In this document: one piece after another, positions 6,926 to 60,193 of the stretch
How the letters are laid out: each line of letters opens with the position of its first letter
Numbering within the stretch: position 1 is the first letter of the stretch
Source of the DNA: Candidatus Tenebribacter burtonii
GTDB taxonomy: Bacteria > Cloacimonadota > Cloacimonadia > Cloacimonadales > TCS61
DNA: 63,009 bases
Reading direction: 5' to 3'
Assembly: GCA_030765625.1 (NCBI GenBank)
Contig: JAVCCF010000089.1
Coordinates: 1-63,009, forward strand
Made by a program: the position numbers and the translations under genes
Notes under the pieces: generated by a model
Seen by the model: the letters and a program-made list of their open reading frames with translations, nothing else
Database searches by the model: none
Told to the model about the DNA's origin: nothing

Positions 6926-8122
6926 ATGAAAATTGTAATCCAGAAATTTGGTGGAACTTCATTACAAAATGCAGAGATTAGAAACAAAGCTGCTGAGCAT
7001 ATTGCAACCGCTATGAAAGATGGATTTTCTCCTGTTGTAGTTGTATCTGCAATGGGTAGAAGAGGTGATCCTTACGCCACAGATACATTATTACAATCAG
7101 CAACTTCAATATTTAAAAATATCTCTCCCCGCGAAAAAGATCTGATCATGTCATGTGGTGAACTAATATCTGCTGTAGTTATGGTGCAAACATTAAAGCG
7201 TAAAAATATTGATGCAGTTGCATTAAATGGAATGCAGGCTGGTATTATCACGGATGACAATTATAATCAGGCAACCATAAAGAAAATAGTTCCCGATAAT
7301 ATATTAAATGTACTTAATAATAATAAAATCCCAATTATAACTGGATTTCAAGGAATAAGTGAGAATGGTGAAATAACAACATTCAGCAGAGGTGGCAGCG
7401 ATACAACTGCCAGTATTTTGGCTGCTGCATTAAAAGCTGAACACATAGAAATATATTCGGATGTTGAAGGCATATTAACTGCTGATCCACGCCAAATTAC
7501 CGGTGCTAGGAACATACCTGAAAGCAGCTATATAGAAGCTGTGGAGATGGCGAATAAAGGTGCAAATGTTATCCATCCTCAGGCTGTCTCGATAGCTTCC
7601 CAATATAAAATTCCCATTAAGCTATTTTCAACTTCTAATAATGTGAAATCAACTATTATCTTTGAAATGAAAAATGATAAGCCTGTTACTGGAATAACCA
7701 GTAAAACAAATATTATCTTAGTACGGATATTTCCTAAAAAAAACAACATCTATAAAACCGGATTAAGCATTTTTCAAACTCTTGCACAACAGAATATCAG
7801 CGTAGATTTTATTTATATAACTCCAGAATTGATATCATTTATTATTGAAGAAGATCTGGAAGATAAATTCATTAAAATATTAGAACAAAATAATTATGTA
7901 TTTGAAACAGAAAAAGAATTTTCAAAGATATCTGTTGTGGGCTCTGGAATGACAGGAATGCCAGGTGTAATCGGGAAGATCGTGAAAGCTTTAAGTTCCA
8001 AAGACATTATGATCTACGAATGTACAGACTCTTATACAACAATTTCATGTCTTGTAAAAAGTATCGACGAAATAATGGCAATCACAGCTTTACACAAAGA
8101 ATTTAAATTAGGAAGTAAATAA
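6926..8122 (+). CDS. lysC: Aspartate kinase
   Basis: Motifs present are KFGGTS, VVVVSAMG and FSRGGSDTTA, with C-terminal ACT-like repeats. Confidence 0.9.
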   Translation: MKIVIQKFGGTSLQNAEIRNKAAEHIATAMKDGFSPVVVVSAMGRRGDPYATDTLLQSATSIFKNISPREKDLIMSCGELISAVVMVQTLKRKNIDAVALNGMQAGIITDDNYNQATIKKIVPDNILNVLNNNKIPIITGFQGISENGEITTFSRGGSDTTASILAAALKAEHIEIYSDVEGILTADPRQITGARNIPESSYIEAVEMANKGANVIHPQAVSIASQYKIPIKLFSTSNNVKSTIIFEMKNDKPVTGITSKTNIILVRIFPKKNNIYKTGLSIFQTLAQQNISVDFIYITPELISFIIEEDLEDKFIKILEQNNYVFETEKEFSKISVVGSGMTGMPGVIGKIVKALSSKDIMIYECTDSYTTISCLVKSIDEIMAITALHKEFKLGSK

Positions 8123-8772
8123 TGTTAAGAAAATTAATAATAACAATTATCTTGATTACGATATTTGTTGGATTAAATACAGAGATCAGTAAAACACAAA
8201 ATAATATGAATCTGATATTTTTGCGTGAATTAGATTCAAATTTACTAGAAACGATCAAGATCATGGATGTGTATAATCAAGTTGCAAATAATATTTCATA
8301 TGATGTTTTAGGAATTGAACATTATCAGAAATTCTTGATGGAAATGACTATGATTTGCATGAATTTGAGAAATGATATTTCCAGTTCTGTCGAATTGAAT
8401 TCTGAACAGCGGGAAATATTTGTTAATGAGTTGATCAATTCATTAAAACCTGATGTGAAAAGCATAACCGGACAAATTACAGAAGAACAAGATATGCAGG
8501 GAAAACAATTCAATAAATTAATTATTCAAAAGATCAATAATCATTTAAAAGAAATAAGAAAAGAGATAATTATTCAAGAAGAAATGATAATTGAAAGTAA
8601 AACTTTTGACCAGTATTTTTTTCATCTTCATTCACAACAGTTTATTTATCAACTTGTTTTGAATTTTTTAAAACCTTCAGATTATCTAAGTAGATTAAAC
8701 AGAGCATTCATTATTCGTGTCGCATCTGAAATTGAATATAACATATTAAATTCTCCAGAACCAGCAAAATAA
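8122..8772 (+). CDS. Hypothetical membrane-anchored protein
   Basis: A 216-aa ORF with one N-terminal hydrophobic helix. It is start/stop-coupled to lysC (TAATG). No recognisable domain. Confidence 0.55.
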   Translation: MLRKLIITIILITIFVGLNTEISKTQNNMNLIFLRELDSNLLETIKIMDVYNQVANNISYDVLGIEHYQKFLMEMTMICMNLRNDISSSVELNSEQREIFVNELINSLKPDVKSITGQITEEQDMQGKQFNKLIIQKINNHLKEIRKEIIIQEEMIIESKTFDQYFFHLHSQQFIYQLVLNFLKPSDYLSRLNRAFIIRVASEIEYNILNSPEPAK

Positions 8773-8957
8773 TGAAAATATTATTAACGGTACTTACATT
8801 CATTTTGGGTGCAGTAGCTGGTTATTTATACTATAAACTTATTGGCTGCAGAAGTGGTGGTTGACCAATGACATCTAACGTTTGGTCAAACGTTTTAATC
8901 GGTGCAATATTTGGATATTTACTGCTTTCGCCAGTCATAGATAAATTATTAAAGTAG
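8772..8957 (+). CDS. Small two-helix membrane protein with in-frame UGA (candidate selenoprotein; the Cys form resembles the DUF6132/GCxSGxC family)
   Basis: Hand translation gives MKILLTVLTFILGAVAGYLYYKLIGCRSGG[TGA]PMTSNVWSNVLIGAIFGYLLLSPVIDKLLK*. The ORF is not in the track because the TGA at 8862-8864 splits it. It is coupled to its neighbours: its ATG overlaps the upstream TAA, and the next ATG lies 2 nt after its TAG. Confidence 0.6.
8862..8894 (+). promoter_or_regulatory. SECIS-like hairpin directly downstream of the in-frame UGA
   Basis: The stem pairs AACGTTT (8877-8883) with AAACGTT (8888-8894), and the apical loop is GGTC (8884-8887). The loop sits at nt 23-26 counted from the U of UGA. 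A competing stem pairs TTGACCAA (8861-8868) with TTGGTCAA (8882-8889). Confidence 0.55.
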
Positions 8958-8958
8958 T

Positions 8959-9531
8959 ATGAAAACAGAAGTGAAACTTATCTTTCATCCTACACTTGGT
9001 AAGATTCATTTCAGGAATAGTATAAAAGCCAAATATTTAAGAATATCAATTAATAACTTGAAGATAATTAATGTTACAATTCCTAAAAAAAATACTGTTC
9101 GGAATGCAGAAAAATTTCTTAATTCTAAAATTGACTGGGTACAAAAGCAATTAACAAAAATTGATAAGAGAAATCAATTTACACTTAACAACACAGTGAA
9201 TTCTAATTTATTAAGTAAAAATGTAATTAAAGAAATTATTCGAAATAGGCTAAATGAACTATCACAAATTCATGGATTAGATTTCAATCGATCTTTTATA
9301 CGTTCTCAGAAAACGCGTTGGGGGAGTTGTTCTGTCAGGAATAATATTAACTTGAACATAAAATTGATCAACCTTCCTGCTGATTTACAGGATTATGTGA
9401 TTATGCACGAATTGGTTCATACGAGAGTAAAAAATCATAGCCAAATATTTTGGGATGAAATGACGAAATACTATCCCAATCCAAAAGCGATTGATAAAAA
9501 ACTGAAAAAATATAACCTGGAATTGTTATAA
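8959..9531 (+). CDS. YgjP-like (DUF45) metal-dependent hydrolase
   Basis: Contains an HELVHTRVKNHS zinc-binding motif and RWGSCS, which are typical of the DUF45/M48-like family. Confidence 0.8.
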   Translation: MKTEVKLIFHPTLGKIHFRNSIKAKYLRISINNLKIINVTIPKKNTVRNAEKFLNSKIDWVQKQLTKIDKRNQFTLNNTVNSNLLSKNVIKEIIRNRLNELSQIHGLDFNRSFIRSQKTRWGSCSVRNNINLNIKLINLPADLQDYVIMHELVHTRVKNHSQIFWDEMTKYYPNPKAIDKKLKKYNLELL

Positions 9532-12256: not shown

Positions 12257-13774
12257 ATGAAGAAAATTATATTATTCTTATTCTTGTTTTCAAACACAAT
12301 TATTTACGCTCAAAATGTTAATGGTGACACTCTAAGCGTAGAGGGTAAGAAGATCCTCAAAGTTTGGGGTACACATTATGAGAGAGGTTATGCAGCCGGT
12401 TACTTATTTGGAGATAAGATCAAAGAGATTTCAGAAAATTATTTTATTGGTATTTTTTTTGGAGGGAATGCATATATCTACGAAAATACCAGAATATACT
12501 TTCTGGACAATTTCCAAATAGAAGAGAAGTATATTTCCGAAACTGAAGGAATGATAGATGGAATGATTGAAGCAAATGTTGTTCTTTTTAGTGATATTTT
12601 AGGAAGAGATATTGATGCACATGATATATTGCTTTCAAATGCTATCGTTGATCTATCTGCACTGGGAGAATTAAATACGGATTTCGAATTTGGTTGTTCA
12701 AGTTTATCCAGCTGGGGCGGGAATACAATTTCAGATCCTGAATTATTGGGTGAACTGGTAATTACTAGAAATATGGACTGGACGCCACATCCTGCTTTAT
12801 TGGACAACCACTTGATGGTTGTTCATTTTCCATCGGAAACTAATGAAATTAACTGGTTGTCATTTACTTTCCCGGGTTTTATAGGAGGTCTCTCTAGCAT
12901 AAACGAAAATGGACTATGTGCATTTATGAATATGGGAAATCATAATGAACATCCCAATGCTTTTACTTATCATCCAATTCTATTATCGATTAGAAATGGA
13001 ATTGAGATTTATGATTATGACGGAAATTATGAGATAAATCCTGAAGATGTACAAGCTGCGATTGAAGGGAATTTTCAATTAAGTGGTTCTATTATTCATA
13101 CAGCAAATCATGAGAGTGGATTGGTGATTGAATGTAATAACCAAAACGGTATTGTTGCACGGGATGATGAAGATAACACAATTATCCCAAATGAACATCT
13201 GGCAACTACAAACCATTTTAGAAAGTTATATTCACCTGCCGGTTGTTCTCGTTATAATAATATTGCAGATTCACTTTCTGCTAATTCAGATATTGATATA
13301 ACGCGAAGCTGGGAATTATTAGCAGGGGCAGCAGGAGTTTCTAGTAACATTCATACAATACAATATGTTCCCTCGCTAAACTTGATAAAATGGTCAACTG
13401 CTGAAGCGGGAATCCCAGCTTATCAAATAGAACCAACGATATTCAATACTGTAGAGTTATTTACATATAACACGAGTGCAAACCCACACTATTTTCATGA
13501 CCATTCCTTTTTAATTGTATCTCCTAACCCTTTTAATAATTCTACAAATATATCTTTTTCGCTTCTTAAAACAACAGAAGTAAAACTATGTATCTATAAT
13601 ATTAAAGGGCATAAAATTAGAACACTTCTTAATGAGGTTTTGATTCAGGGAAATCATAGTATTAGTTGGGATGGAACTGATGAAAATGGAAAGAAAATTT
13701 CTAGTGGTATCTATTTTTACACACTTAAAACAATCCATAATGTTTATACAAAAAAAGTTATACTGTTAAAATAA
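12257..13774 (+). CDS. Secreted C45/Ntn-hydrolase-like protein with a T9SS C-terminal sorting domain
   Basis: It has a signal peptide, a GCSSLS nucleophile-like motif and an ITRNMDW motif. The C-terminus is NPFNNSTNISFSL...IYNIKGHKIRTL...GNHSISWDGTDENGKKISSGIYFY, a FlgD-Ig/T9SS CTD signature. Confidence 0.65.
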   Translation: MKKIILFLFLFSNTIIYAQNVNGDTLSVEGKKILKVWGTHYERGYAAGYLFGDKIKEISENYFIGIFFGGNAYIYENTRIYFLDNFQIEEKYISETEGMIDGMIEANVVLFSDILGRDIDAHDILLSNAIVDLSALGELNTDFEFGCSSLSSWGGNTISDPELLGELVITRNMDWTPHPALLDNHLMVVHFPSETNEINWLSFTFPGFIGGLSSINENGLCAFMNMGNHNEHPNAFTYHPILLSIRNGIEIYDYDGNYEINPEDVQAAIEGNFQLSGSIIHTANHESGLVIECNNQNGIVARDDEDNTIIPNEHLATTNHFRKLYSPAGCSRYNNIADSLSANSDIDITRSWELLAGAAGVSSNIHTIQYVPSLNLIKWSTAEAGIPAYQIEPTIFNTVELFTYNTSANPHYFHDHSFLIVSPNPFNNSTNISFSLLKTTEVKLCIYNIKGHKIRTLLNEVLIQGNHSISWDGTDENGKKISSGIYFYTLKTIHNVYTKKVILLK

Positions 13775-23539: not shown

Positions 23540-23878
23540 TATCCACTGATCCATGTGCGTAACTGGCAACCGGGTGAATGGGATCTCTCCGAACAGATTA
23601 AACTGGAGAATTTCAGGTTTTATTAAACCTTTGTAATTGTTGAAAATCTTGCGAATGGTTGGCAATAAAATTTACCATTGAGTCAAACTCAACACAATAT
23701 CATTTGCTTGTAGAAAATCTTAGCGAAACTTGTCAAAAGTCCCAAGAAATTTTGGAATAAATTGATAGTTGGGGCTTTATTTGAATTTTTAATAAATTGG
23801 TTAATAATCCAGTTGACAAATTCAAGAGGATAAAAACATTCTACTGCATAAAAAAAATGCAATAATAAGGAGACTATT

Positions 23879-24082
23879 ATGGCAAGAATGACCGTGAATG
23901 CGGAAATATGTAAAGGCTGTGGATTGTGTATTCCAGCATGTCCTAAGCATATTATTAGATTCTCTGAAGAGATCAATTCCAAAGGATATCATTATGCTGA
24001 GTGTTTTGATCAAGAAGCTTGTATTGCTTGTAAATTATGCTATACAACTTGTCCTGACGTAGCAATTACAATAGAAAAATAG
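23879..24082 (+). CDS. 2-oxoacid:ferredoxin oxidoreductase, delta (2x[4Fe-4S] ferredoxin) subunit
   Basis: Two CxxCxxCxxxCP motifs are present: CKGCGLCIPACP and CIACKLCYTTCP. Confidence 0.85.
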   Translation: MARMTVNAEICKGCGLCIPACPKHIIRFSEEINSKGYHYAECFDQEACIACKLCYTTCPDVAITIEK

Positions 24083-36275: not shown

Positions 36276-36699
36276 AATAACTCCTTTTAAAGTAAAATAA
36301 AAGATTGATTCATCAAGCGTTTAACTAACAGAAATAGATCATAATTCACACCCGGCTAGAGCTTAAGATAACAACAAAATTAGAATCCTTTTACTACAGG
36401 CATCATTCTTTATTGAAAGTAAGACTCCAAATACATAAGAGATAAAAAAATAATCAGTATATATTTTTTTGCTAGTCATTAATTAATACTATGTAATAAA
36501 TAAAATATATCCATGTCAAGTATAATTTGATAAAATTATATTATCAAATCAATAATTTATTAATTGATACAAGAAATAATATTATAAAGTTTTAAGGCAG
36601 GTTAGCTATCTCGATACTGCAAGTTTCTTACAAAATAAAGAACACCAGTGATATTTCGGTATTTTAAATAAGCTATTAGTAATTGGATTCTATAGCTAT

Positions 36700-37548
36700 T
36701 TACATCTTTAATATTTTCAAGAAAACTTCATCCATATTTTGCAGCAATAGTTCAGGATCAATACGTTTTGATATCCAACCAATACCCCAATGCAGGTGAT
36801 TTCCAGTTGAACGCCCCGTAGAATCAACCTCTCCGATCTTCTCACCTGCAAGGATAATCACCTCAACATTTACGGTACTCATATGTATATAAATAGAGCT
36901 TAATTCGCTGAAATGGTCAAGCAGCACGAATTTACCATTGTAATAATAATCTCCCGTTTTTGCTACAATGCAGGATGTCATGTTAATAATGTCTATTTCT
37001 TTAGGAGCTGCAATATCAAGTCCGTTATGGGGTGTTTTGGGAATTCCATTAAGAATGCACTGACTGCCGAAAACTCCTGATATCCTGCAGCCGGAAATTG
37101 GAAGACAGAAATTTTCGAAATAAATATCATTATTCCTGAGTAATTTACTTCGTCTATCTTTAAGCTTTTCAGATTTTACTGTAATTCTTTGTATAGTTGC
37201 TGGAGCTTGAGGTTACTTAACATATTTTTTTTTAATTCCATTAATTCTCTGGATCTGATAATCGCGTTTGAAAATGTAGAAAACAGATGTAAACATACTA
37301 CCGTTTTCTAAAACTACCGTAATTTTATGTTTAAGTTTCTCATCACGGTCAAAACCAAAGATTGCTCTATTCTCAAAAATTGGAATTTCTGTAGGGTCGA
37401 GAAAAATTTTTTCAATTTAATCATCAGTTCTGCAAATTATTATTCCGCCCTGGATTGGATTACCTTGCAGTGAGATAAGCTTTATTGCAGTAAGTTGAAT
37501 TATGATGAGCATTAATAGTATGATCAACAATACATTTTTATGATTCAT
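36700..37548 (-). pseudogene. M23 (LytM-type) metallopeptidase gene disrupted by two in-frame TAA codons
   Basis: Hand translation of one continuous frame gives MNHKNVLLIILLMLII...CRTDD*IEKIFLDP...KKKYVK*PQAP...FGSQCILNGIPKTPHNGLDIAAP...STGRSTGNHLHWGI. The stops are at 37419-37417 and 37215-37213. No frameshift is present. Confidence 0.75.
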
Positions 37549-37653
37549 TTTTTTCCAGCAACCATTCGCAAGGTCTTTAATTTCTTTTTACTTCAACAAT
37601 GGTAATTCTGTGTTGAATATTGGATATTCAATCCCTTATCAATTACTCACAAT

Positions 37654-57464: not shown

Positions 57465-58847
57465 ATGTTAAACAGGAACATCATAGAGAGAGTGGTAGAT
57501 AAAGCACTTTCAAATGGTGCAGATTTTGCTGAGTTGTTTGTCGAGAACACATTCAATTCTACAATTGCATTTAACGACAGCAAAACGAAACAGAATATCG
57601 TTGGTAATGATTACGGTGCTGGCGTAAGAGTTTTTTATGGTCATACAGCAATTTATGCTTTTACAAATGATCTTAGTGAAGAGGCACTTTTAACTGCAGC
57701 CGATGCAGTTAGTAAAGCAGCGAAAAGCAAGAATGTAATTGCTTCTATCGATCTCACGGAAAAAGAGATCACAAATATCCATCCAATTGATATTCCTAAT
57801 AATACAATATCAAAAAAGGACAAAATAGATTTCATCAAAAAAGTAGATGAAGCTTCTCGTGGGTATAGTGATCAAATAAGTCAGGTTGATATTCGGTTTA
57901 TGGAAAAGAACCAGCATGTTATGATAGCGAATAGTGAAGGTTTACTTGTTGAAGACGATAGAAATTATTCTAGAGTTTATGTTTCATCAATCGCTTCTAA
58001 TGGCACAGAGAAGCAAGTTGGCGGAGAAGGACCAGGCAGATTTGCTGGGTATGAATTCTTTAAATCAATTGATCCAGTTAAACTTGGAAAAGATACAGCC
58101 AAAGTCGCTGTGACAATGCTGAATGCGGATTATGTTCCAAGTGGTAAGTATCCGGTTATTATTGATAATGGTTTTGGTGGAGTTATTTTCCACGAAGCAT
58201 GCGGACACTCACTTGAAACAACTGCAATTGCAAAAGGTGCTTCTGTGTTTGTTGGAAAGATGGGTGAGAAAATAGCTTATGAAGGGCTTACTGCAATAGA
58301 TGATGGAACCATACCAAATGAATGGGGAAGTGAGAATATCGATGATGAAGGAATGGCAACAAAAAAGACAATTCTCATAGAAAATGGTATTTTAAAATCT
58401 TATATGGTCGATAAAATGGGAAGCATAAAAACCGGATATGCAAGAACCGGAAGCGGTAGAAGACAATCTTATAGATTCGCTCCTGCCAGTAGAATGAGAA
58501 ATACTTATATTGCCAATGGGAATGATAAATTTAACGATATGATCGCTTCAATTAATGAAGGGATATATGCTGCTAAAATGGGTGGTGGTTCTGTAAGCCC
58601 TGGAACTGGTGATTTTAACTTTGCTGTTGCAGAAGGCTATATGATAAGAAATGGTAAAATTGCAGAACCTGTTCGTGGAGCAACACTTATCGGAAATGGA
58701 GCAGAAGCTTTATTGAAAATTAGCATGATCTCTAATAACATGGCAATGGCTCAGGGGATGTGCGGCTCTGTTAGCGGAAGTATTCCAACGAATGTAGGAC
58801 AACCGGCAATTAAGATCGACGAGATTATCGTTGGTGGAAGAAATTAA
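57465..58847 (+). CDS. tldD: TldD metalloprotease
   Basis: Contains the HEACGH zinc motif and has PmbA_TldD family architecture. Confidence 0.88.
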   Translation: MLNRNIIERVVDKALSNGADFAELFVENTFNSTIAFNDSKTKQNIVGNDYGAGVRVFYGHTAIYAFTNDLSEEALLTAADAVSKAAKSKNVIASIDLTEKEITNIHPIDIPNNTISKKDKIDFIKKVDEASRGYSDQISQVDIRFMEKNQHVMIANSEGLLVEDDRNYSRVYVSSIASNGTEKQVGGEGPGRFAGYEFFKSIDPVKLGKDTAKVAVTMLNADYVPSGKYPVIIDNGFGGVIFHEACGHSLETTAIAKGASVFVGKMGEKIAYEGLTAIDDGTIPNEWGSENIDDEGMATKKTILIENGILKSYMVDKMGSIKTGYARTGSGRRQSYRFAPASRMRNTYIANGNDKFNDMIASINEGIYAAKMGGGSVSPGTGDFNFAVAEGYMIRNGKIAEPVRGATLIGNGAEALLKISMISNNMAMAQGMCGSVSGSIPTNVGQPAIKIDEIIVGGRN

Positions 58848-58861
58848 GGGGAGGAGCAGAT

Positions 58862-60193
58862 ATGTATAAGAAAGAATTCCAAACAATATTTGCTTATGCA
58901 AAAGATAAAACAGACGAGACAGAAATTTTACTATCAGCAGCTAACTCGTTTTCTGTAAAGATAAATGAACAAAATGTAGAATCATTTAATTATGCCGATT
59001 CAAAAGGGATTGGTGTACGGATAGTTAAGGATGGAAAGGTTGGTTATTCTTACACAGAAAAATTTGATGATGAGACCTTTAAATTAATAGTAGATGAAGC
59101 TATCGAAAATGCAAAATATACTGAAGATGATGAAGTTGTTATTATGGAGAATTATCCAGAAATTACTGACAACCCAAATGTATATTCTGAAAGTTTGGAT
59201 AAAGTTGATGTATTGGATAAGATCCAACTTGCACAAGATCTTGAAAAATATGCCAAAGAAGCTGATAAGCGAGTTTTCAATGTTCCTTACGCAGTTTATG
59301 CTGATGGAAAAAGTTATAGCCGAATTGCTAATAGCAAGGGATTAGATAAAGAAGATACCCAAAATTTTGCATATGCTTATGTTGGTGCATTATCAGCAGA
59401 AAAAGACGATAAGCGAATGGGAATAGAATTCCATATAACAAGAAATTTTGGTGAATTCGATCCAAAGAAAATGGCTGAAGAAAGTGTTAAGAAAAGTACT
59501 GATCTTCTGAATGGAAAACCTGCTGAGACTGGGAAGTATGCAGTAGTTTTCAATAATGAAATGATGGCAACAATGCTTGCAACTTTCTCAGGAATCTTCA
59601 ATGCAAAATCTGTTCAGGAAGGGAGATCACTTCTTAAAGGAAAAATAAGACAACAAATTGCTAACGAAAAAGTCACAATCATTGATGATGGCTTACATCC
59701 AAATGGTTTTTCTACTTCTGCTTTTGATAATGAAGGTTACCCAACAGAGAGAACAGTTTTAATTGAGAATGGTGTTCTAAGATCATTTCTTCATAATACA
59801 ATAACTGCAAGAAAAGACGGTGTAAAATCGACAGGTAATGGATCCCGTGGTTACAAAGGTACTCTTGGAATTAGTACATCAAATTTTCTTATAGAAGCAG
59901 GTGAATATAAAGAAGCTGACCTTTTTTTAAAACATAATAAAACAATCGAAATTGTCAGTTTGCAGGGAATGCACTCCGGTGCTAATGCGATTTCAGGTGA
60001 TTTTTCATTAGGTGCTCAAGGTTTCTTATGGGAACACGGTAAACGTAAACATTCTCTCAAGCCGTTTACAGTAAGTGGAAATTTCTTGCAGATGCTAAAT
60101 GGGGTAGAAGCAATTGCAGATAACTTCAAATTTGATATGAGCAGTAACGGTGCATCTTCTATTTTGATTAATGAACTAAATATTAGTGGATAA
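58862..60193 (+). CDS. pmbA: PmbA/TldE protein
   Basis: A paralogous PmbA_TldD family protein with no HExxxH motif, directly downstream of tldD. Confidence 0.85.
   Translation: MYKKEFQTIFAYAKDKTDETEILLSAANSFSVKINEQNVESFNYADSKGIGVRIVKDGKVGYSYTEKFDDETFKLIVDEAIENAKYTEDDEVVIMENYPEITDNPNVYSESLDKVDVLDKIQLAQDLEKYAKEADKRVFNVPYAVYADGKSYSRIANSKGLDKEDTQNFAYAYVGALSAEKDDKRMGIEFHITRNFGEFDPKKMAEESVKKSTDLLNGKPAETGKYAVVFNNEMMATMLATFSGIFNAKSVQEGRSLLKGKIRQQIANEKVTIIDDGLHPNGFSTSAFDNEGYPTERTVLIENGVLRSFLHNTITARKDGVKSTGNGSRGYKGTLGISTSNFLIEAGEYKEADLFLKHNKTIEIVSLQGMHSGANAISGDFSLGAQGFLWEHGKRKHSLKPFTVSGNFLQMLNGVEAIADNFKFDMSSNGASSILINELNISG

Follow-up and report, generated by a model that had tools for sequence, protein, structure and literature searches.

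The window analysed here, a 63,009-nucleotide stretch of contig JAVCCF010000089.1 from Candidatus Tenebribacter burtonii, a member of the Cloacimonadota, contains a small locus at 8772-8957 of the forward strand in which 186 nt read as a single frame of 30 codons, TGA, 30 further codons and TAG. From the ATG at 8772 the first 30 codons encode MKILLTVLTFILGAVAGYLYYKLIGCRSGG, and the 30 in-frame codons after the TGA encode PMTSNVWSNVLIGAIFGYLLLSPVIDKLLK up to the TAG at 8955-8957. Packing on both sides is tight: the TAA of an upstream gene for a 216-aa protein shares one nucleotide with the ATG at 8772, and a single nucleotide separates the TAG from the ATG of a YgjP-like gene, which is the kept downstream neighbour of the small gene in Cloacimonadota. 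Twelve nucleotides past the UGA, in the codons for N-V-W-S-N-V, begins the hairpin AACGUUU-GGUC-AAACGUU, whose loop occupies nt 23-26 with the U of UGA as nt 1 and which resembles a bacterial selenocysteine insertion sequence (SECIS). A sequence-only reading of the window had taken these features as a candidate selenoprotein. Its coordinates and its frame across the TGA were verified, as were the seven base pairs, the distance from the UGA and the loop position of the hairpin. Its description of each half as one hydrophobic helix agrees with the hydropathy profile and with a structural model of a relative. The positions of all features of the locus are collected below.

Features of the small locus and its immediate neighbours (window coordinates)
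Feature	Position	Strand	Remarks
Complete small gene	8772..8957	+	60 sense codons plus the proposed selenocysteine UGA, 61 codons in all, then TAG; DUF6132 member
TGC, Cys26	8847..8849	+	First Cys of the C-x4-U pair; column Cys in 151/151 relatives
TGA, residue 31	8862..8864	+	Proposed selenocysteine codon, from the Cys/TGA alignment column
SECIS-like hairpin in coding sequence	8877..8894	+	5' arm 8877-8883, GGUC loop 8884-8887, 3' arm 8888-8894
Competing 8-bp stem containing the UGA	8861..8889	+	8861-8868 with 8882-8889; present, not supported as conserved
Hydrophobic helix 1, residues 2-23	8775..8840	+	AlphaFold2 model of the Cys-type orthologue P0001; hydropathy profile
Hydrophobic helix 2, residues 37-60	8880..8951	+	Same sources; overlaps the hairpin
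Upstream 216-aa protein	8122..8772	+	Hydrophobic N-terminus; no Pfam match
Downstream YgjP-like metallopeptidase-domain gene	8959..9531	+	Pfam PF01863, E = 1.9e-39

When the U at the TGA position is read as C, the product scores 28.4 bits against the Pfam family DUF6132 (PF19628), for which the threshold is 23.2. This holds for the fused product only; the separate halves have no Pfam match, in agreement with the earlier view that neither half makes sense on its own. In NCBIfam neither the whole protein nor either half had a matching model, even with a limit of E <= 10, and the small protein is thus not among the NF-numbered selenoprotein families. DUF6132 occurs in Bacteroidota, Bacillota, Myxococcota, Spirochaetota and other phyla and has no known function. 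With this family (G-C-x(3,4)-C-P-I-T-S-N) the product shares its length, the two hydrophobic helices, the loop motif and the invariant glycines. It differs in two respects: the second Cys of the family is UGA here, and the consensus N-P-W/Y after the motif is replaced in the TGA clade by N-V/A-W-S, encoded by the codons that form the hairpin.

A HMMER search of 1.84 billion representatives with a Cys-type orthologue (P0001) as query yielded 230 matches at E <= 0.001, and the best 151 of these were aligned. The first Cys never varies in this alignment (151/151). The column into which the TGA falls is essentially invariant as well, with Cys in 146 of the 151 relatives, 'W' in four and no residue in one truncated call of 31 residues; DNA fetched for all five non-Cys relatives has TGA at that codon in every case, and three 'W' database entries found later are likewise TGA in their DNA. 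The proposal of a DUF6132-like protein with TGA at a Cys position is thereby confirmed. Four residues separate the two Cys in 108 relatives and three in 36, the second position being UGA in the window. The top match of a phmmer search (P0003; 2937 aa, 14 matched stretches) was rejected as spurious, as it is a protein with FN3-like repeats that lacks the Cys motif.

We obtained 160 loci from scans of species-representative genomes and of metagenomes of the Joint Genome Institute (JGI). At this column the fetched loci carry 42 TGA, 74 TGT and 50 TGC codons; without two spurious TGT matches, the Cys codons number 122. With three further sequences the TGA orthologues number 45. They share about 45-98% protein identity, comprise 36 distinct 72-nt segments among the 42 from the scans, include 19 species-representative genomes and are nearly all labelled Cloacimonadota; the remaining labels are a few 'uncultured bacterium' and one 1.7-kb contig binned as Armatimonadota. 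This contig (L028, 932-1078), part of a metagenome-assembled genome, carries a TGA form of the usual Cloacimonadota type, hairpin included, and its label is probably due to a binning contaminant and not to a second phylum with the selenocysteine (Sec) form. The Cys codon is found in some Cloacimonadota and in all other phyla (Bacteroidota, Bacillota, Myxococcota, Verrucomicrobiota, Spirochaetota and others). Two Cys-type loci (L008, 10001-10180, equal to L002, 10001-10183; and L092, 9-188) fall inside the Sec clade, with 82-87% identity to the protein of the window. One codon has been lost in both, giving C-x3-C instead of C-x4-U, but the hairpin is retained with all its 7 bp and has GGGC as its loop; this looks like a recent conversion from Sec to Cys with a relic SECIS element.

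The 72-nt core of the window, TGA included, is identical in five other independent assemblies, which excludes a sequencing error. In those assemblies either no gene has been called in the 186-nt stretch or a 35-aa open reading frame (ORF) has been called antisense to it; the stretch is without a called gene in four other assemblies of the same contig. Database proteins show related artefacts: seven protein clusters have a false Trp at the Sec position (L001, 199-384; L004, 95-349; L005, 488-706; L006, 135-368; L172-L174; all on contigs of 500-950 bases), and one further cluster stops short at 31 residues. A reading of TGA as Trp by the gene callers, in the style of genetic code 4, would be in line with the 'W'.

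Conservation of the hairpin was scored at a fixed register, pairing offsets 15-21 with 26-32 from the T of TGA. Six or seven of the seven pairs form in all 42 TGA forms from the scans and in the three later ones, so that TGA and hairpin are kept together in 45/45 orthologues. The loop of the 42 is GGUC in 39, GGUU in two and GGGU in one. Among the 122 Cys forms, in contrast, the median is 2-3 of seven pairs, and distant Cys-type homologues lack the hairpin. Six or more pairs are reached by 11 of these 122 sequences; eight of the 11 are Cloacimonadota near the Sec clade, several of them with a GGUC or GGGC loop.

Across the 36 distinct TGA sequences, 96.8% of the hairpin cells are paired, and four of the seven pairs have changed on both sides (U-A to C-G, C-G to U-A, U-A to A-U and A-U to C-G). 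The observed pairing or covariation was matched by 0 of 500 shuffles, and sliding the partner by 1-3 columns reduced pairing to 16-62%. RNAalifold independently recovered the same helix. Since the 17 U·G cells in the alignment would be mismatches on the opposite strand, the structure belongs to the sense RNA. The compensatory changes carry correlated amino-acid replacements, for example N-V…N-V to N-A…S-I. In the six hairpin codons of the TGA forms the variability of the third codon position is only 0.128, compared with 0.58-0.63 in flanking codons, whereas the same codons of the Cys forms show 0.681 against 0.71 in their flanks; silent sites are thus frozen in the TGA forms but not in the Cys forms, which indicates an RNA-level constraint specific to the former. 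The sequence-only reading had also pointed out a competing 8-bp stem that includes the UGA. This stem exists in the window, and we rejected it as a functional element because it shows no covariation beyond column composition: 83.7% of its cells are paired compared with 83.5% in shuffles, and 202 of 500 shuffles do as well.

According to a 2026 review, the consensus bacterial SECIS element has a loop of 3-9 nt with a G in its two leading positions, an upper stem of 4-16 bp, a distance of 16-37 nt between UGA and loop and an energy of at most -7.5 kcal/mol (PMC13188914). The 4-nt GGUC loop, the 7-bp stem and the 19-nt spacing of the hairpin all lie within these limits. The prototype of such elements, that of E. 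coli fdhF, likewise follows an in-frame UGA at a position where homologues have Cys and lies right downstream within the coding sequence. The apical GGUC loop is at nt 22-25 there, as the sequence-only reading had stated and as we counted on a 46-nt segment that is identical to fdhF in 5419 of 5426 E. coli genomes; its distance is thus nearly equal in both. The differences are nevertheless considerable. The stem of the window is a perfect, A/U-rich 7-bp helix of -4.2 kcal/mol, compared with -14.9 kcal/mol for the 46-nt fdhF element; a conserved lower stem, such as the long one of fdhF that reaches the UGA, is missing; and the protein is unrelated to formate dehydrogenase. In outline the hairpin would work like the fdhF element, but it is a different one. 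In a 90-nt context the energy is -19.1 kcal/mol with the hairpin included, the additional pairs not being conserved. In Rfam only noise was obtained for 8700-9050 at E <= 10, and no match at gathering scores was found across the window.

For the Cys-type orthologue P0001, which is one residue shorter than the window protein, AlphaFold2 predicted a plain helical hairpin from an alignment of 99 sequences (mean predicted local distance difference test score, pLDDT, 76.8), with helices at residues 2-23 and 36-59 and both cysteines in the loop of residues 24-35. A Foldseek comparison of this model with the PDB returned nothing below E = 1, and a sequence search of the PDB gave no match. Of 88 distinct Cys-type loci from phyla other than Cloacimonadota, 37 carry, no more than three genes away, a gene of the thioredoxin-fold, thioredoxin-reductase-like or rhodanese type; in many cases it lies immediately upstream in the same orientation. 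Pfam matches on 47 such neighbours were Thioredoxin (29), Rhodanese (13), Pyr_redox_2 (10) and AhpC/Redoxin (5); other recurrent neighbours are ArsR-type regulators, DUF302 and Zn-ribbon proteins. A rhodanese gene (PF00581) also lies directly upstream in one divergent TGA-type contig (L005, 133-468), matching the rhodanese and thioredoxin neighbourhoods of the Cys-type relatives in other phyla. The gene order in Cloacimonadota is aspartokinase, the uncharacterized 216-aa protein, the small gene, YgjP-like, GNAT and MFS. The 216-aa protein is kept as upstream neighbour in 14 Cloacimonadota loci, was seen in that phylum only and may be a functional partner of the small protein.

Taken together, the Cys/TGA column, the 45 TGA orthologues and the covarying hairpin support the candidate selenoprotein: very probably, 8772-8957 is one gene for a 61-residue, two-helix DUF6132 membrane protein whose UGA is read as Sec. 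We infer that the second Cys of the inter-helix motif G-C-x4-C-P-[ILM]-T-S-N is encoded by UGA and that the 7-bp GGUC-loop hairpin acts as a bacterial SECIS element. With the ribosome at the UGA, SelB carrying Sec-tRNASec would bind the apical loop, and Sec would be delivered instead of termination. In the protein, Cys26 and Sec31 in the inter-helix loop could then cycle between the thiol/selenol and the selenenylsulfide form, the protein serving as a membrane-associated site of redox chemistry or sulfur/selenium transfer with thioredoxin-type partners. The replacement of Cys by Sec would mark the residue as catalytic or redox-active, and a thiol/selenol pair is suggested because thioredoxin, thioredoxin reductase and rhodanese genes adjoin the Cys-type relatives. 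On this basis, a membrane site for thiol/selenol redox chemistry or for sulfur transfer is a tentative assignment, plausible but open to real doubt. Bolder and rather unlikely is the idea of a new class of membrane selenoproteins of very small size, in which a helical hairpin of 61 residues, probably as an oligomer, would use its Cys-x4-Sec loop as a membrane-embedded selenenylsulfide relay. Thioredoxin- or rhodanese-type partners would exchange reducing equivalents or sulfur/selenium atoms through it, at or across the membrane, and it would be a minimal analogue of systems of the CcdA/DsbD type. Known membrane selenoproteins with CxxU, UxxC or GUxSG motifs likewise have Sec in or beside membrane segments with a Cys nearby, and share a suspected role in handling sulfur, selenium or soft metals. 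No sequence relationship to them was detected for the protein described here, which is far smaller, with 61 aa, two helices and C-x4-U.

Several observations weigh against these interpretations. Neither selA, selB and selD nor tRNA-Sec was found in the 63-kb window or in the fetched loci; the tRNA scan found the window free of tRNA genes and detected no tRNA-Sec among 28 Cloacimonadota loci. Folded alone, the local RNA is not unusually stable (z = +0.7), it is the competing stem that minimum-free-energy folding gives for the 45-nt and 61-nt stretches taken in isolation, and both the hairpin alone and the best 45-nt fold that contains it (-5.8 kcal/mol) are weaker than the published cut-off of -7.5 kcal/mol. 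As single-sequence folding is not significant, support for the hairpin comes from comparison and not from thermodynamics. The stem also lacks the bulged U of fdhF. Several Cys-type Cloacimonadota keep the hairpin, and its conservation could be partly inherited or imposed by the N-V-W-S residues. With regard to function, the neighbours in Cloacimonadota are not redox genes and give no hint, so that the functional proposal rests on the distant Cys-type relatives. Lysine and arginine together average 2.3 and 1.7 in the two tails and 1.4 in the loop; these charges slightly favour a topology in which both tails point inwards and the Cys/Sec loop faces outwards, without deciding it.

The lack of Sec machinery in the sequence available and the thermodynamically weak hairpin would both suit a UGA that is decoded, but not as Sec: by near-cognate tRNA-Trp, or as Cys by a Cys-charged tRNASec-like tRNA, with the hairpin as a generic read-through or pausing element. 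Such tRNASec-like tRNAs carrying Cys occur in some bacteria. We consider this improbable, since the column, with Cys in 146 of 151 relatives, shows the Sec/Cys pairing in its classic form, the apical G-G-U and the spacing of the hairpin are those of SelB-dependent elements, and the motif would be destroyed by Trp in place of a Cys that is otherwise invariant. In addition, a 'Cloacimonetes type' of tRNASec with a 7+5 acceptor/T arm has been described (PMC5330540, citing Mukai et al. 2016), which shows that Sec decoding exists in the phylum; the supplements of that tRNASec paper contain no Cloacimonadota entries. Ten window ORFs of a size similar to SelA, SelB or SelD were inspected and discarded as TldD/PmbA, ThrC, PurF, transketolase and unknown proteins. 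A lineage code in which UGA is a sense codon for Trp or Gly would account for the W at the column in the seven database proteins. However, these proteins come from the short contigs mentioned above, and standard-code translations of the loci do not reproduce them. TGA is also an ordinary stop in the window, as the sequence-only reading had stated: five of the 60 long ORFs end in it, and some of these stops lie in ATGA overlaps. Read-through is required by no other gene of the window, and the only other in-frame TGA codons flanked by open frames on either side, in the window and the Sec-type loci, belong to antisense shadow ORFs. The ordinary stops exclude a reassigned code for the window, to which we attach a practically negligible probability.

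Two separate peptides, one of 30 aa ending at the TGA and one of 29 aa starting at an ATG three bases on by translational coupling, would agree with the listing of both halves as ORFs by gene callers and with the ATG or TTG at codon +2 past the TGA in the window and in 22 other TGA forms. On the other hand, 19 of 42 TGA forms have no in-frame ATG, GTG or TTG before codon +10 and two have none at all, while the residues right after the TGA, P/S/A/G-[ILMV]-T-S-N-V-W, are conserved even where a start codon is missing. A separately initiated second peptide cannot explain this, and two peptides of about 30 aa, which the sequence-only reading had named as the outcome that would speak against it, are therefore very improbable; moreover, the halves match no family, the fusion matches DUF6132, and all Cys-type relatives are single proteins. 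Even less credence is due to a pseudogene or assembly error, that is, a nonsense-mutated Cys codon with a chance palindrome nearby. TGA is indeed one base from TGC and TGT, and a palindrome as short as AACGTT could arise by chance in AT-rich DNA. Yet the core recurs unchanged in the five independent assemblies, the TGA is kept with an intact frame throughout the 45 divergent sequences, the hairpin covaries, and the 36 distinct segments show that the TGA forms are not clonal. Substitutions downstream of the hairpin are of the coding type, with variabilities of 0.35, 0.09 and 0.58 at the three codon positions.

As far as can be told, the gene with its proposed Sec codon represents a selenoprotein family that has not been reported before and relies on the usual bacterial mechanism of recoding. 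Among 516 database relatives, none has a U or a selenoprotein name, their labels being 'DUF6132 family protein' or 'hypothetical'. A catalogue from May 2026, which covers 119 families and subfamilies of prokaryotic selenoproteins, lists neither PF19628/DUF6132 nor a two-helix membrane protein with C-x4-U, and a full-text literature search for DUF6132 gave no relevant result. If Sec is indeed inserted, the prokaryotic selenoproteome gains one more family, its members among the smallest selenoproteins and among the few that are membrane-embedded, from a phylum whose selenoproteins are nearly absent from the searchable literature; no new principle is involved. The widespread DUF6132 family would also gain a functional handle, and its neighbourhoods point to thiol or persulfide chemistry. 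The locus further exposes a blind spot of annotation, with pipelines that omit the gene, truncate it at 30-31 residues or, on short contigs, put Trp for UGA. The hairpin over N-V-W-S-N-V is a clean natural case of one sequence under both protein and RNA constraint.

Apart from this locus, the window, which has a G+C content of 33.6%, is tightly packed except for two stretches without a long ORF, 36276-37653 (about 1.4 kb, with a 93-aa ORF only) and 23540-24082 (543 bases); neither has an Rfam match at gathering scores. The forward strand also carries a gene for a 505-aa protein (12257-13774), whose C-terminus matches FlgD_ig / Por_Secre_tail domains (type IX secretion system sorting) in copies of the contig, in keeping with a Cloacimonadota-like origin, and a TldD/PmbA metalloprotease pair at 57465-60193.

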